The position numbers were made by a program, and so were the translations under genes. 64,000 nucleotides of DNA from a virus: positions 35,096-99,095 of the IMG/VR virus record IMGVR_UViG_3300020469_000023, one strand, 5' to 3'. Within the stretch, counting starts at the first letter, position 1, and every line of letters begins with the position of its first letter. Of this stretch, positions 33,222 through 50,023 are shown piece after piece. The notes under the pieces were generated by a model, which saw only the letters and a list, made by a program, of their open reading frames with translations, ran no database searches and was not told the DNA's origin.

Positions 33222-35689
33222 TATCCAAAAAACTCGTCTAATGATGCTTTGGGTTCTGCCGACCAATCAATCGCATCAAAAATTGGTTCGAGCGGTTCAA
33301 GAAAAGTTTTTTCAAACATTGTATCATAGTCAACGTATTTATGTAAGTTAAATTCTTCTGGTAATCTCATCTTAAATGAAATAACATTTTCATTAATTGG
33401 GTTTGGTGTTTTTAAATAACAAAATTTAATCTTCTCACCATTACCAATCTTTTCATATTTTTTATTCAACTGGTGTTTTTCTATGTAGTGATTATGTAGC
33501 AAACTACCTCTAGAATGTATTGGTGTGCCTTTGGTATAAATGTTTTTGTTGTCTTTGTATTTTTTTACGTGACGAACACCACGAGGAAATGCAATATCTT
33601 CTGGGCGTATTTCACTAAACTCTTTACGAAAGTTTGCGACAAACTCTTGTGCTTCATCTTGAGTTTTACCAACTAAGATAGGAAATAACTCTTTCATTTT
33701 ATTACGAACTAATTCTGGTGTAGAAGATTTAATTGCTTCAATACCCATAATCTTTAGTTTTGGTTTTGCATACTGAACACCTTCTGAGTTGTGTACATTT
33801 AGAATATATCTTTTCTTTGCCTGCCAAATACCTTTATCTGCAATAACTTCTCTACCCATTTCCATACGATTACTCATTGCACCAGAATAGTTTGCAAACT
33901 CTTGATACGAATCTGTTAAGACTTTTTCAAAATGAGTTTTAGATATCTCGTCCAGAAACTTAACAGGATTTTTAGGATTGAATTTCTGGACGAGTTCACC
34001 CATACGAATGTATAGTGAATCTGTGTCAATTGCTATGACATAATCTTCTTCATCTGTTTCTAATAACTTATTCATTTCTTTATTGACAGTTCGTTCTGCC
34101 CAAAGAATTGCTAACTGACCTGACATTGTGATAGATTCTGCAACACGTTGGTCAAAGTATCTAAACCAACGATTGCCTAATGCACCATAAAGTGAGTTCA
34201 TTAAAATCTTAATTGCCATTTGTTCATTGTACAGATGCGATATCTTATTTGATAATGCTTTTGTTGGTGTAGTCTCATACTCTTGTTGTAACTTCAACAT
34301 TTCTTTTTTAATCTCTACACGTTCTTCATAATATTTCTGAATAACAAATGGGATTACACCCTGTCTTTCTTTTGAAAATCTTACACCATTGGGTGTTGTT
34401 GCATATGTTGTATCAATATCTGTTTGTTTTCTTAACATGTGTTCAATAGATGTATCGACTAGTCCATCAACTACAGTTTCGGGTGACATATTATTCTGAA
34501 CGATAATATTAGGATATAGTGAGTTCAAGTCAAACGATACTACCCAATCATGGCCGCCAATCTGAGGTTCTTTTACATATGCACCGACAAAATCTGATTT
34601 ACTCTTTTCTATTTTAGGTGGGCAAACAACTTTATTCTGCTCAAGTATACGATAGATAATAGTGTCCCATATCATTGTCGTACCAAGTACGTCTCTATAG
34701 TTTACACCACCACGATATGCCATAGTCAATGCTAATGTAATAAGACCTAACTTCTCTTCGAATCTATCAACTAATTCAACGTCTTTGATATTGTACTCAA
34801 TAAATTTTTGATAGTCGTTTTTATATAATGAAAACAAACTACCTTGGTCTTCATATGATAACTTACCTTCACCAAGTTCTACGTGTGAAATATGATTTAG
34901 TGAATACATTTCTTGTTGTACGTATGTAAACTTCTTGTATAGTTCTAAATAGTCAAGTTGAGTTACACCCATAATATCATATGCATAATTAGTGTTACCA
35001 GTAAACTTATCTTTTCTATTGTCTTCTTTAACATTACCCCAGGGTGATAGTTTTTTAATTTCTTCTTCGCCATAGACTTTTCTAATTCTATTGACAATGT
35101 ATACCATATCAAAACCAATACTATTCCAACCAGTAACAATATCTGGATAGTTATCTTTCCAATACTCTAGAAATTTGTGAAGCAGGGCCGCTTCGTTTTT
35201 ACATTGAGTATAAACTACATTGTCTGCAGGATTAAACTCACCAAAACCCCATGTACGATAAACATTTTCTTTACTATTCTTTGTTGTAATTGCAGTAATG
35301 GGCCATTCTGCTAAATGTGGTTCAGGAAAACCTTGGTCTGACTGACACTCAATATCAATTGTTGTGACAGATATATCGTCACGATTAAACTTTATATCTT
35401 CTGGGTATTTTTGTGCAATAAACTGAGAGACATAATTATTCATACCATAAACTTCAAAGTTATCTACGTGTTCATATCTTTTTGTAAAGTCTGTTGCATC
35501 TTTCATAGAATCAAACTCGATTGGTTCGACTAAAGTATTATCAAGAGTTTGCCAACCAGTGCTTGGTTTAGATGTTGTTACGTATAATTTTGGTTTAAAT
35601 GGAATTCTTTGCTTGACTCTTTGCCCACCTTTATATCCAATATAAAGTAAACTGTTGCCATAACGAGTCACGTTAGTATAAAAATTCAT
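33221..35689 (-). CDS. gp43: Family B DNA polymerase gp43
   Basis: DIEC exo [27 protein letters not shown]. Confidence 0.97.
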
Positions 35690-47135: not shown

Positions 47136-47747
47136 ATGACAGAGAAAAAATTAAAACCACAAGAAAAACCACACTATGTAAACAATAAAGATTTTTCATT
47201 AGCAGTAGTTGATTATTGTCAAGTCGCAGAGAAGGCAAAGAAACAAAAATCTAAAAAAGTACCAATTGTTCCAAATTACATTGCAGAATGTTTTCTTAAG
47301 ATTGCTGAAGGTCTATCACACAAATCAAACTTTATAAGATATACTTATCGAGAAGAAATGGTAATGGACGCTGTAGAAAATTGTTTGAAAGCAATTAAGA
47401 ACTATGATATTAAAACTGCAACAAGAACTGGTACACCAAATGCATTTGCATACTTTACTCAGATATCTTGGTATGCATTTCTACGTAGAATCGAAAAAGA
47501 AAAGAAACAACAAGACATTAAGTTAAAGTATATCGCTAACGTTGGTATAGACGAACTAGTTGACAATCAAGATGGCGATACGCCTAGTGATGAAGCAATG
47601 GCATTCGTTGATAATCTTCGTTCAAGAATTGATGGCGTAAGAGCAAATGATTTATATTGGAAAGATATTGTTACAGAAGAAAAAAAGAAGACAAGAAAGA
47701 GACGTGCTGTAAATGTTGATTCTGACTTAAAAGACTTCTTAACTTAG
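47136..47747 (+). CDS. gp55: Late sigma factor gp55
   Basis: HYVNNKDF, CFLKIAEGLS, NAFAYFTQI, AFLRRIEKEKKQ. Confidence 0.95.
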   Translation: MTEKKLKPQEKPHYVNNKDFSLAVVDYCQVAEKAKKQKSKKVPIVPNYIAECFLKIAEGLSHKSNFIRYTYREEMVMDAVENCLKAIKNYDIKTATRTGTPNAFAYFTQISWYAFLRRIEKEKKQQDIKLKYIANVGIDELVDNQDGDTPSDEAMAFVDNLRSRIDGVRANDLYWKDIVTEEKKKTRKRRAVNVDSDLKDFLT

Positions 47748-47804: not shown

Positions 47805-48131
47805 TTAGAACTGTACAGAGACTCCACACCCACATGATGCTTCTTCATTAGGGTTTATTATCTTAAAGTATTCGTTAACACCATCGACAATCCAATCTAA
47901 AGTAGAACCTTGAAGAAATGGTATTGAGAGTTTATCTACTACTATATTGAACTTTCCGTAGTCTAGAATAATATCGCTTTCAGTAGTAGATTCAACATAC
48001 TTAATATAATACTCGTACCCAGCACACCCACCAGCAGTAACACCAAGGCGAATACCACTTCGATTGCTATTCTCCGTTCTCTCAATCGCTTTAGATATCG
48101 CTCCATCTGTTAACTCAATATCCATATCCAT
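47805..48131 (-). CDS. iscA: Fe-S cluster carrier IscA/HesB family
   Basis: GGCAGYEY, NPN...SCGCGVS. Confidence 0.88.
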   Translation of the reverse strand: MDMDIELTDGAISKAIERTENSNRSGIRLGVTAGGCAGYEYYIKYVESTTESDIILDYGKFNIVVDKLSIPFLQGSTLDWIVDGVNEYFKIINPNEEASCGCGVSVQF

Positions 48132-48561
48132 TCGGGTCTTCCCATTGGTTGTGTTTTCTATGTTTACTTTTTTCTTCCCAATCTTCAACTGCTTTCTTAA
48201 TACCTTCTTCTGCAAGTACTGAGCAATGTAATTTGATAGGTGGTAATTCTAATGCTTCTGCAATCTCTTTATCTTTTATTTGTTTTGCTTCATCAATAGT
48301 TTTACCTTTAAGCATTTCAACAAACATTGTCGATGATGCTATTGCACTACCACACCCATATGTTTTAAACTTGACATCTTCAATTACGTCTGTTTCTGGA
48401 TTAAGTTTGATATCTAATTTCATGACATCACCACATGCTGGTGCTCCAACTAAACCAGTTGCAACATTAGGGTCATTGGGGTCAAATCTACCTACTGCAT
48501 GTTTTTCTGGATTCTTTAATACAGATTCAAATCTGTCTACTACTTTACTACTATATGCCAT
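48115..48561 (-). CDS. iscU: Fe-S scaffold IscU (start MAYSSKV)
   Basis: GAPACGDVM, FKTYGCGSAIAS, LPPIKLHCSVLAE. Confidence 0.93.
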   Translation of the reverse strand: MAYSSKVVDRFESVLKNPEKHAVGRFDPNDPNVATGLVGAPACGDVMKLDIKLNPETDVIEDVKFKTYGCGSAIASSTMFVEMLKGKTIDEAKQIKDKEIAEALELPPIKLHCSVLAEEGIKKAVEDWEEKSKHRKHNQWEDPNGYGY

Positions 48562-48566
48562 ACTAC

Positions 48567-48574
48567 TATTTATA
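48567..48574 (-). promoter_or_regulatory. gp55-type late promoter of iscU
   Basis: TATAAATA-GTAGT-ATG. Confidence 0.75.
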
Positions 48575-48575
48575 A

Positions 48576-48705
48576 TAAAAAAAACCCCGGTCAAGGGAAA
48601 GTTGCGAACTTTCTGGTCTACCTCACCGGGGGTGATTGTCTATCGACTTTTGACTTTACGCCGTTACTTTATTTTAGAAATTTACCTCTCTTTCTCATTC
48701 TCAAT
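48576..48705 (-). ncRNA. Candidate ~130-nt small RNA
   Basis: Own sigma70 promoter, GC-rich 3' stem plus U-tract, only a 9-codon ORF. Confidence 0.5.
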
Positions 48706-49074: not shown

Positions 49075-49103
49075 TTGACAATTTTTGTTTAGTCAAGTAT
49101 AAT
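49075..49103 (+). promoter_or_regulatory. sigma70-type promoter of bS21
   Basis: TTGACA-17-TATAAT, 8 nt before ATG. Confidence 0.85.
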
Positions 49104-49111
49104 ACTAAACA

Positions 49112-49408
49112 ATGAGAAAAAATAACTATAACAGACGTCCACAGAGACCGAAGAAACGAAGATACGATGGACCAAAAGATACTGGTTTAACTGTATATGT
49201 TCGTGATGGCAATGTCGACCAAGCACTCAGAAGATTTAAAAAGAAAGTTAAAACTGCTGGTGTTATTGAAGACATTAAGAAAAGAGAATTTTTTGTTACT
49301 CGTAGAGAGAAACGTAGATTGCTAAAAGATAAAGCAATTCGTAGACAGAAAAGAGAAAACGAAGAATTTAAGAATACTTTCCTTAGGGGAAATAGAGGCA
49401 TTAGATAG
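49112..49408 (+). CDS. rpsU: Ribosomal protein bS21 with basic N-terminal extension
   Basis: VYVRDGNVDQALRRFKKKV...IKKREFF...EKRR. Confidence 0.88.
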   Translation: MRKNNYNRRPQRPKKRRYDGPKDTGLTVYVRDGNVDQALRRFKKKVKTAGVIEDIKKREFFVTRREKRRLLKDKAIRRQKRENEEFKNTFLRGNRGIR

Positions 49409-49565
49409 TCTTTAATTATCTAGCACATAGTCACTATTCGACTAAAGTGAAATCAGAATAGAGTTGGTTACTGAACACCCATGTGAATATGAGAAAGGTC
49501 ACATTACCTCTATAAGGGAAGAGACGAACATTAACTCTTCCCTTAAATGTAGAGGTTGTATTTTT

Positions 49566-49573
49566 TATAAATA
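49566..49573 (+). promoter_or_regulatory. gp55-type late promoter upstream of riboswitch
   Basis: TATAAATA. Confidence 0.7.
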
Positions 49574-49595
49574 CTAGTGTATAGAAATATACATA

Positions 49596-49743
49596 CGTTC
49601 ATCTTAGTATTATTGACTACTAAGACGGAAGTAGGAAGATAGGAAAACCTCTTTCTTTTTCATAAAGAAAGGTAAGCAAGTAAGCACTTATGGGTCAATA
49701 AATTCCAGTGCTGAACGAGACCGACAATCGACCGAAGGAACGC
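49596..49743 (+). ncRNA. Glutamine riboswitch-like element (glnA RNA family) with large insertion
   Basis: CGTTCA...GACGGAAGTAGG...CCGAAGGAACGC hallmark segments; precedes a YRG peptide gene. Confidence 0.75.
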
Positions 49744-49807
49744 TATGAGAAGGGTGTACAACGAAAGTTGTATGTACGAAATCGATTAGAAAACTGGAGG
49801 GATACAC

Positions 49808-49972
49808 ATGTCTTATTACAGAGGTATCAAAGTAACTCCTGAAAATATTGCTAAAGAGAAAAATTCTCCAAAAGCAGGTATTTACAGAGGAACTAAGCAC
49901 GATGCGGAAGTATCTAAAGACAACACGTCTACTAGCGAATTAAATTATCGCGGTGTAAAACATGTTGCTTAA
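49808..49972 (+). CDS. 54-aa YRG-repeat peptide (DUF4278-like)
   Basis: MSYYRGIK...IYRGTKH...NYRGVKHVA; GGAGG SD; not in the ORF track. Confidence 0.8.
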   Translation: MSYYRGIKVTPENIAKEKNSPKAGIYRGTKHDAEVSKDNTSTSELNYRGVKHVA

Positions 49973-49993
49973 TAGATAACTTGCTATCAGAAC

Positions 49994-50023
49994 AAGGGCA
50001 GACTTAACATCTGCCCTTTTTTT
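49994..50023 (+). terminator. Rho-independent terminator
   Basis: AAGGGCAGA-loop-TCTGCCCTT plus T-tract. Confidence 0.85.

Follow-up and report, generated by a model that had tools for sequence, protein, structure and literature searches.

Between the gene for ribosomal protein S21 and gp23, the IMG/VR virus record IMGVR_UViG_3300020469_000023 carries a small riboswitch cassette, which we describe here from a stretch of 64,000 nucleotides (nt) of that record (positions 35,096 to 99,095). This stretch is called the window below; all positions refer to it, and RNA coordinates are on the (+) strand. The window belongs to a T4-like myophage, with a Gp23 capsid protein (477 bits), ribosomal protein S21, and IscU- and IscA-like proteins, and its gp23 shares 69% identity with that of phage C48C1, 62% with that of OM43 phage Melnitz and 59-61% with those of pelagiphages HTVC008M and Mosig. 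From 5' to 3', the cassette is made up of a late promoter, a 5' hairpin, an aptamer, a platform domain, the Shine-Dalgarno (SD) sequence GGAGG, a gene for a DUF4278 peptide and a terminator. By its sequence and fold, the element is a genuine type-1 glutamine riboswitch (glnA RNA, RF01739), and it contains a conserved extension domain. We consider it very probable, taking the evidence as a whole, that this is a type-1 glutamine riboswitch enlarged by a conserved extension, in a SAR86-derived cassette that was re-wired to a late promoter and likely functions as a translational ON switch.

A glutamine riboswitch core with an extension domain

A preliminary description of this locus had spoken of a glutamine-riboswitch-like RNA, and comparison with Rfam bears this out. 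RF01739 (glutamine riboswitch, glnA leader) matches 49594-49746 (+) along the full model (1-53), with 40.8 bits against a gathering score of 35 and an expectation value (E) of 1.9e-05 on the whole window, and it is the sole Rfam match above gathering score in a scan of the whole window. Scoring with both the glnA and the Downstream-peptide models had been proposed; the former passes, and the latter (RF01704, glutamine-II) does not, as it reaches 14.2 bits against a gathering score of 33 and covers 49593-49627 only. With RF01739, 17 of 19 representatives of the related leaders score 38-50 bits. The motifs on which the preliminary description was built were all located exactly where it had placed them.

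The three-way junction of RF01739 is complete in the window. P1 pairs CGUUC (49596-49600), which is invariant in 88 of 88 sequences, with GAACG (49738-49742); P2 is a hairpin at 49602-49625, with a stem of 8 base pairs (bp; 49602-49609/49618-49625) and an 8-nt loop, UUAUUGAC (49610-49617; TTATTGAC as DNA); and P3 is closed by GG/CC. The core joining strand CGGAAGUA (49626-49633), part of the RF01739 consensus, contains the invariant GGAAGUA, and on the other side of P3 the equally invariant strand GAAG runs into the 3' strand of P1, the two together occupying 49734-49742 in the RF01739 alignment. In DNA letters, the core further reads CGGAAGTAGG at 49626-49635 and CCGAAGG at 49732-49738. The glnA fold contains a loop E motif formed by AGUA and GAA flanking P3 (PMC6698751). 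Here the AGUA half lies in CGGAAGUA, and the junction strands ACGGAAGUA and GAAGG that carry the motif match the RF01739 consensus exactly and are invariant across 87 sequences.

Pair counts were taken from a model-based alignment of 88 related sequences with 27 modelled pairs. In this alignment, 93.9% of the cells form standard pairs and 21 of the 27 pairs show changes on both sides, including every modelled pair of P2 and P3; none of 500 shuffles reaches any of five pairing measures, and when the 3' partners are slid, they pair at only 39-50%. P2 occurs in 51 distinct sequences, and its pairs 1-4 are canonical in 97 of 97 leaders, with three to five pair types each. Plain minimum-energy folding of 49590-49812 gave z = -0.87 and did not recover the aptamer, a result that is uninformative for a fold of this kind.

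In the RF01739 alignment, 96 nt are inserted between the GG and the CC of P3. The solved structure of glutamine-I shows the ligand touching C1:G59, the terminal pair of P1, and P3 pointing sideways without contributing to the pocket (PMC6698751), which makes P3 a natural site for expansion. The insertion of ~95 nt that had been noticed earlier is thus present at P3, but it is not private to this phage and instead represents a family-wide domain of 60-100 nt, found on SAR86 chromosomes and phage contigs. The extra hairpins that were thought to stand in place of P3 have fared similarly: two of them, named HPa and HPb here, are real, but P3 has been lengthened and not replaced. The insertion is therefore a conserved extension domain, in which P3, lengthened to ~7 pairs, opens into a second three-way junction containing HPa, HPb and the invariant joining strands GAAAACCU, AGCWAGUA and GAACGAGACCGA.

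The 5' strand of the extended P3 (GG, an AA internal loop, GAU; 49634-49640) pairs with its 3' strand (AUC, a GA internal loop, CC; 49727-49733). All five modelled P3 pairs vary on both sides, and all 35 distinct combinations of 5' and 3' strand form the helix, with a mean of -4.2 kcal/mol for cognate strands versus -2.2 kcal/mol for non-cognate ones. P3 is followed by the joining strand Ja, AGGAAAACCU (49641-49650), in which GAAAACCU is conserved, and by hairpin HPa, which reads CUUUCUUU-UUCAU-AAAGAAAG plus a G (49651-49672; DNA stem CTTTCTTT/AAAGAAAG, 49651-49671). The 56 distinct HPa sequences are all hairpins, and five of the six modelled pairs change on both sides. The next joining strand, Jb, is UAAGCAAGUA (49673-49682); its AGCWAGUA is conserved in all leaders, and the terminal AGUA lies flush against HPb (49683-49712). 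HPb is enlarged in the window, where it consists of AGCAC/GUGCU, a UUA bulge, UGG/CCA and an 11-nt loop, GUCAAUAAAUU (49694-49704); over its 44 distinct sequences the base pairs covary, and most are 8-13 nt long, often with GNRA loops. The last joining strand, Jc, is GAACGAGACCGA (49713-49724) and opens with a GAA flush against HPb.

The leaders thus share one plan, which from 5' to 3' reads CGUUC, A, P2, CGGAAGUA, the 5' strand of P3, Ja NNGAAAACCU, HPa, NNAGCWAGUA (Jb), HPb, Jc GAACGAGACCGA, the 3' strand of P3, GAAG and GAACG. Every part by which the extended class is defined (extended P3, GAAAACCU, HPa, AGCWAGUA, HPb, GAACGAGACCGA and the 3' strand of P3) is found in the window, which scores 114.5 bits to model R1 over its full length. 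A further hairpin, AGG-AAAA-CCT (49642-49651), had been drawn in the preliminary description and has to be given up: the two bases before GAAAACCU vary (AG, CU, UU, GG) without compensation, and the AGG/CCU pairing is lost in relatives, which read CUGAAAACCU, UUGAAAACCU or CUGACAACCU at this place. The segment belongs to the near-invariant joining strand GAAAACCU.

Platform, promoter and probable SAR86 origin of the cassette

P1 is followed by a platform domain (49743-49795), consisting of helix PX (CUA 49743-49745/UAG 49787-49789), the strands GAGAAGGGUG and UGUACGAAAUCGA, hairpin Hc and the linker AAAACU. The three PX pairs are canonical in 82, 82 and 81 of 82 leaders, with UA/GC/AU types, and PX and Hc both covary. 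Hc, which is TACAAC-GAAA-GTTGTA in DNA letters (49757-49772), has a GAAA loop and is represented by 37 distinct hairpin sequences; as had been described before, it precedes a GGAGG SD (49796-49800), which is placed 7 nt before the start codon ATG at 49808. The class-1 form of this arrangement (PX, GAGAAGGGUG, Hc, UGUACGAAAUCGA, then AAAACUGGAGG, with the AUG of a YRG peptide) is found in 83 of 97 leaders, including that of the window. An SD is present in every parsed leader, since the parsing pattern required a GGAGG or GAGG motif 3-12 nt before an AUG.

The gene at 49808-49972 (+) has 54 codons and encodes a basic peptide with three YRG repeats (DUF4278, IF17-like), and a YRG peptide gene lies downstream of every parsed leader. 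The sole Pfam match of the peptide is PF14105 (DUF4278), with 24.9 bits versus a cut-off of 25.3; PF14105 matches the peptides of 10 out of 10 relatives, four of them above the cut-off. DUF4278 is a domain of IF17, the cyanobacterial glutamine synthetase inactivating factor, and is the usual gene behind glutamine riboswitches (PMC6212724). The window, with its DUF4278 (gifB-like) gene directly 3' of the riboswitch, shows this usual RF01739 association. It had been suggested earlier that late gene expression senses host nitrogen in this way. As the controlled gene encodes a DUF4278 (IF17-like) peptide, a link to the nitrogen status of the host is reasonable, but the control concerns one small gene in its own promoter-terminator unit and not late genes generally. 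The unit is closed by a terminator-like hairpin (49994-50018 (+), with a T run to 50028), which was found in a terminator scan.

The extended form is widespread. The two halves of the core, spaced 80-110 nt apart, were found in 17 viral contigs, and the invariant 3' part of the extension in 70 viral contigs and in 39 contigs of bacterial and archaeal genomes, 34 of which are labelled SAR86 and many of which are 0.1-1.1 Mb long. The 3' module, preceded by AGTA with 20-50 nt in between, was found in 36 metagenome contigs, and a scan of viral contigs with the 5' part only gave 15 further loci. Every one of these new loci carries the (G/A)AACGAGACCGA of Jc, which the scan did not specify, as do all hits of the scan with the core halves. 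In total, 97 distinct full leaders were parsed, and the extension is present in ~85 uncultured viral contigs as well as on SAR86 chromosomes. A covariance model of aptamer plus extension scores 85-125 bits on all extended leaders; with this model, the phage's own record has a single copy, and 36 of 121 sampled SAR86-order genomes have full-length matches. No match was returned by blastn of 49540-49980 against GenBank phages or by tblastn of the peptide; uncultured contigs and SAR86 genomes are the only known sources of the cassette. Leader and gene of the window have ~75% nucleotide identity to SAR86 chromosomal copies (L110, L088 and L079) and 99% to two environmental contigs.

Searches with the existing family model can miss this form. 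A two-stage profile search of the phage record with RF01739 gave no match, although cmscan gives 40.8 bits, apparently because the first-look filter of such a search fails on the long insertion. In two extended leaders (L153 and L154, of the phage types E and F described below), GCUGAAGG replaces CCGAAGG and P3 starts with a G-U pair, and these leaders fall below the Rfam gathering score. With the window copy missed by the two-stage search and types E and F by the Rfam model, extended switches are probably under-annotated.

The promoter differs between phage and host copies. As the preliminary description had supposed, the RNA of the window lies behind a predicted T4-type late promoter, TATAAATA (49566-49573 (+)), 22 nt upstream of P1. 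Of 82 viral copies, 48 have the same TATAAATA in the 70 nt that precede P1, in most cases with its start at -13/-14 or between -28 and -33, whereas none of 37 SAR86 genome copies has it; these have TATAAT-like -10 boxes 7-12 nt upstream instead. The promoter of the window starts at -30 and so belongs to the -28 to -33 group, and between promoter and aptamer it has a 5' leader hairpin, GUGUAUA-GAAA-UAUACAU (49577-49594 (+)), which is also present in relatives with the promoter at -28 to -33 (L006, L012, L017 and L025). The sequences suggest that SAR86 chromosomes are the native home of the module as a whole, which T4-like marine phages most likely took up, with the sigma-70 promoter swapped for TATAAATA. 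The cassette is thus a host clue that ties uncultured myophages to SAR86.

Some observations on the SAR86 genomes themselves may be added. Many of them have compact matches of 45-58 nt to the glutamine riboswitch, often two in tandem ~70 nt apart (e.g. G044:C5:6914-7036 and G009:C1:170158-170274), and some of these genomes also have the extended form. In five SAR86 genomes (G001-G005, behind leaders L091, L092, L101, L103 and L079), GlnE adenylyltransferase was found in none and PII in all; the sole glutamine synthetase match was a short hit to a glutamine synthetase domain, one per genome, in frames of 332-351 amino acids, and no classical GlnA was seen. The one match extracted from these genomes, at L172:1011-2054, is a GlnII-like protein of 348 amino acids, with 357 bits to NF041605, below the cut-off of 500. 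Judging from these gene contents, a peptide regulator of glutamine synthetase would fit a SAR86 cell without GlnE.

RNA-library contigs from four studies cover parts of 49522-49929 with no or one differing letter: 49633-49929 (X15), 49522-49777 (X16), 49633-49760 (X19) and 49634-49847 (X20, with one difference). These are matches at the level of contigs, for which DNA carry-over is possible, and they lend weak support to transcription of the element. In X15, X19 and X20, very deep short RNA contigs (summed word depth ~690-1940) over 49624-49660 continue into SAR86-type variants, and such deep short contigs over the conserved core suggest that the host versions from SAR86 are abundant in metatranscriptomes.

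Directly upstream of the cassette, the S21 gene (49112-49408; Pfam 59.5 bits) lies behind a perfect sigma-70 consensus, TTGACA-17-TATAAT (49075-49103). The P2 loop of the aptamer also contains a TTGAC, and no promoter-like site was reported there. On the minus strand, 47805-48594 holds two overlapping candidate open reading frames, one IscU-like (NifU_N, 142.6 bits) and one IscA-like (Fe-S_biosyn, 50.4 bits), both of which resemble auxiliary metabolic genes. In relatives, a late sigma factor is annotated beside UvsW; in the equivalent place, the window has an open reading frame of 203 amino acids (47136-47747) with no Pfam match.

Probable switching mechanism and the complementary loops

The ON-switch logic of the glutamine riboswitch has been laid out for gifB (PMC6212724), and a translational ON switch of the same kind would be expected here. 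Glutamine would stabilize P1, whose ligand-touching terminal C:G pair abuts the platform helix PX, and GGAGG would be left free. Without glutamine, CGUUC could pair with the GAACG inside the extension (49713-49717, in Jc), which is identical to the 3' strand of P1 and is thus a candidate decoy. This pairing would release CCGA(C)A of Jc, a candidate anti-SD, together with the 3' strand of P3, and these would mask the SD. The minimum-energy fold does pair CGUUC with the internal GAACG in the window and in leaders L001, L006 and L019, and over 97 leaders the P1 and decoy states differ by 1.7 +/- 2.1 kcal/mol in folding models. The modelled decoy state has the SD paired mostly with Jc and the 3' strand of P3, where CCGACA meets UGGAGG around a tandem G-A. 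On average, the models leave the SD unpaired with a probability of 0.62 when P1 is enforced and of 0.52 when the decoy is (0.95 and 0.54 in the window), and the SD is free more often with P1 in 52 of 97 leaders. If the decoy model is correct, it would explain why GAACGAGACCGA is invariant.

Several points weigh against our reading of the element as a SAR86-derived ON switch with a conserved extension. The extended class is known from sequence and folding models, and in the latter the effect on the SD is modest, the SD being more often free in the decoy state in 10 of 97 leaders and the difference being smaller than 0.1 in 35 of 97. The alignment was fitted to the structure of the model, such that its pair counts lean toward that model, and the invariant joining strands show no covariation; owing to this invariance, a loop E-like contact between Jb and Jc and the decoy P1 are drawn from analogy and nearest-neighbour folding. 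Independent counts based on segments (P2, HPa, HPb, P3, PX and Hc) agree with those from the alignment. The peptide of the window is 0.4 bits under the Pfam cut-off, and DUF4278 is not the part of IF17 that was shown to bind glutamine synthetase (PMC6212724). Finally, it is the promoter types and the distribution, and not a rooted tree, that point to transfer from host to phage.

Other explanations for the element and its extension have to be weighed against this reading. One is that the aptamer function decayed after transfer to the phage and that the leader, no longer a metabolite switch, now serves protein binding or stability. The late promoter already gives temporal control, and for the extended class only sequence evidence speaks; however, phage and host copies alike retain every core position of RF01739 unchanged, and the phage copies keep the arrangement of platform and SD, so that we find this explanation very hard to credit. 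Another concerns the extension itself, which in sequence may be read as a diverged, nested repeat of the core junction. The terminal AGUA of Jb and the initial GAA of Jc around HPb repeat the arrangement of AGUA and GAA around P3 in the core; Jb (AAGCAAGUA) matches the core strand ACGGAAGUA at seven of nine positions, with the same placement relative to the hairpin, and Jc (GAACGAGAC) matches the core strand GAAGGAACG at five of nine, both being flush against a hairpin. With P3 serving as P1, HPa as P2 and HPb as P3, the topology is that of the core, and the extension could be a second sensing core, a duplicate of the aptamer that would allow two binding events or two ligands. However, the insertion alone (49634-49733) gave neither the glutamine family nor any other credible Rfam family in cmscan at E up to 10, the inner joining strands are 10 and 14 nt long versus 1 and 4 nt in the core, and the terminal C:G pair that forms the pocket lacks a clear inner counterpart. 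A second sensor is thus improbable in our view, if less so than a decayed one.

A separate question is posed by the loops of P2 and HPb. GTCAATAA in the HPb loop (49694-49701) is the exact reverse complement, over 8 nt, of the P2 loop TTATTGAC (49610-49617), which had led the preliminary description to propose an 8-bp kissing loop. The exact match stands, but across the leaders its range is narrow. An enlarged HPb of 28-30 nt with the apex UGGGUCAAUAWAU(U)CCA is shared by six phage types, which we call A-F, and a contig from a metagenome-assembled genome (L078), on three different lower stems. The P2 loop (U)UAUUGAC is found only in types A-C (the window is of type A; nine distinct leaders), whose loops could form 8 Watson-Crick pairs in type A and 7 in types B and C, with duplex energies of -7.1 kcal/mol in A and -6.0 and -6.2 kcal/mol in B and C. 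With loops delimited by RNAfold, the nine leaders of types A-C have 6-7 pairs and every other one of the 97 has at most 4. Types D, E, F and L078 retain the apex of HPb, but their P2 loops (UUU, GCAA/GUAA, UUUU and a palindromic stem/apex) cannot pair with it. The covariation of the loop-loop pairing that had been proposed as a check did not appear: no compensatory change between the two loops was found across types A-C, and the complementarity is conserved only inside one shallow clade. It is an addition specific to this clade and may form a kissing contact.

Whether the match has a function can be argued both ways. A functional kissing helix of 7-8 bp between the P2 loop (UUAUUGAC) and the HPb loop (GUCAAUAA), which would pre-organize or lock one conformer and shift the glutamine threshold in this clade, appears to us a real possibility, somewhat short of an even chance. 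The complement is exact over 8 nt in the window, and in composition-preserving shuffles of the window's two loops, at least 7 Watson-Crick pairs arose in just 610 of 200,000 trials (0.3%). In other lineages, HPb is often capped by a GNRA loop, which fits a docking role of this arm, and other RNAs are known to have exchanged tetraloop-receptor contacts for kissing loops. In the decoy-P1 fold, moreover, P2 (8 bp) and HPb (5+3 bp) would be neighbouring arms of equal length that emerge from one helix, and a kissing contact there would favour the OFF state. On the other hand, the differences that touch the helix weaken it without compensation, an A-to-U change in HPb giving a U-U mismatch in type C and a U being lost from P2 in type B; the aptamer domains of types A-C are 88-91% identical, which makes retention of the loops weak evidence; and HPb is closed by a G-U pair with which the eighth loop-loop pair competes. 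The complementarity could instead be without function, with the apex of HPb being kept for another partner, protein or RNA, and the P2 loop having arisen by chance or by a templated quasi-palindrome mutation that copied the HPb loop; this we rate as close to an even chance. The conservation of the apex over three lower stems and opposite four partnerless types of P2 loop agrees with it, the putative helix has changed at its edge about as often as the background divergence of the clade would predict, and from the shuffles we estimate that one 7-nt match among several pairs of loops would arise by chance in a few percent of cases. Against this, no other partner of the HPb loop was found in types D-F and L078 from 200 nt upstream to ~400 nt downstream, where only chance-level matches of 6-9 nt occur; the rest of the window holds no repeats of the HPb loop motif beyond chance (17 matches with two mismatches allowed versus 14.5 expected), nor of the P2 loop TTATTGAC (5 matches versus 4.9 expected); and a match of 7-8 bp between hairpins of equal length is a typical signature of a tertiary contact. 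Combining both ideas, the extension would be a built-in decoy, whose invariant GAACG rivals the true 3' strand of P1, and the kissing contact of P2 and HPb in this clade would lock the hairpins on the decoy helix and raise the glutamine level needed for the ON state; on the folding models at hand, we hold this combination to be unlikely.

Two further observations concern the phage types. In types B and C (L004, L006 and relatives), the HPb loop CAAUAUAU is complementary to AUGUAUUG at the start codon of the peptide, with 8 pairs, one of them G-U, a match that is about at chance level for the search space used. The leaders also appear to be mosaic. The platform of the window (49743-49810) is 94% identical to that of type D and its aptamer domain only 76%, and types B and C share a short peptide form of 40 residues with types E and F. 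Such mosaic sequences point to recombination between aptamer and platform among phages.

Comparison with known systems

The closest model for the function of the element is the leader of gifB (IF17) in Synechocystis (PMC6212724), with which it shares P1 CGUUC/GAACG, P2, the CGGAAGUA and GAAGG strands, a P3 closed by GG/CC, the position upstream of a DUF4278 gene and, probably, the action as a translational ON switch. In contrast to the gifB leader, which has a short loop at P3, the window has a second-junction domain of ~96 nt there, and a platform of 53 nt follows P1; it also lies behind a T4-type late promoter, and its class occurs in SAR86 and probable phages. The glutamine riboswitch class has been reported only in cyanobacterial genomes (PMC6212724), and a paper from 2025 lists RF01739 hits in SAR86 (PMC12379486). 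Members of RF01739 are also present in related marine T4-like myophages, Methylophilales phage Melnitz and Pelagibacter phage Mosig (PMC9004378). However, their switches are compact (49-54 nt), lack the extension and score 52.8 and 50 bits with RF01739; the extended model gives 30 bits on Melnitz and no match on Mosig at E <=0.001. The compact riboswitch of Melnitz was published as controlling the tmRNA gene (PMC9004378); ~25 nt after this switch (L075, MZ577097.1 46398-46446) there is a GGGGAG, followed by a 32-codon open reading frame (MTLYQQW...) without YRG repeats. Full-text literature searches turned up no account of the extension domain or the platform, nor of DUF4278 cassettes carried by phages of heterotrophs. 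The extension is thus a new and widespread structural variant of a known riboswitch class. It widens the range of glutamine riboswitches by an enlarged subclass that is common in SAR86, among the most abundant heterotrophic bacteria of the ocean, and in T4-like phage contigs, and for structural biology the conserved second junction offers a natural elaboration of a very small aptamer.

The SAR86 chromosomal copies have the same extension domain, platform and peptide family. Compared with them, the phage copy has the late promoter and 5' hairpin, a 30-nt HPb with the GUCAAUAAAUU loop and the complementary 8-nt loop of P2, and its setting suggests that, late in infection, these phages sense the glutamine of the host and make an IF17-like peptide in response. 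The L2-L3 kissing contact of purine riboswitches is likewise made by hairpins of similar length with complementary loops, which could pre-organize the fold; it is family-wide and supported by covariation and solved structures, whereas the loop match of the window is AU-rich, confined to one clade and unsupported by covariation. If the decoy and the kissing contact are both real, the cassette would show that, in nature, a phage has retuned the set-point of a riboswitch derived from its host.

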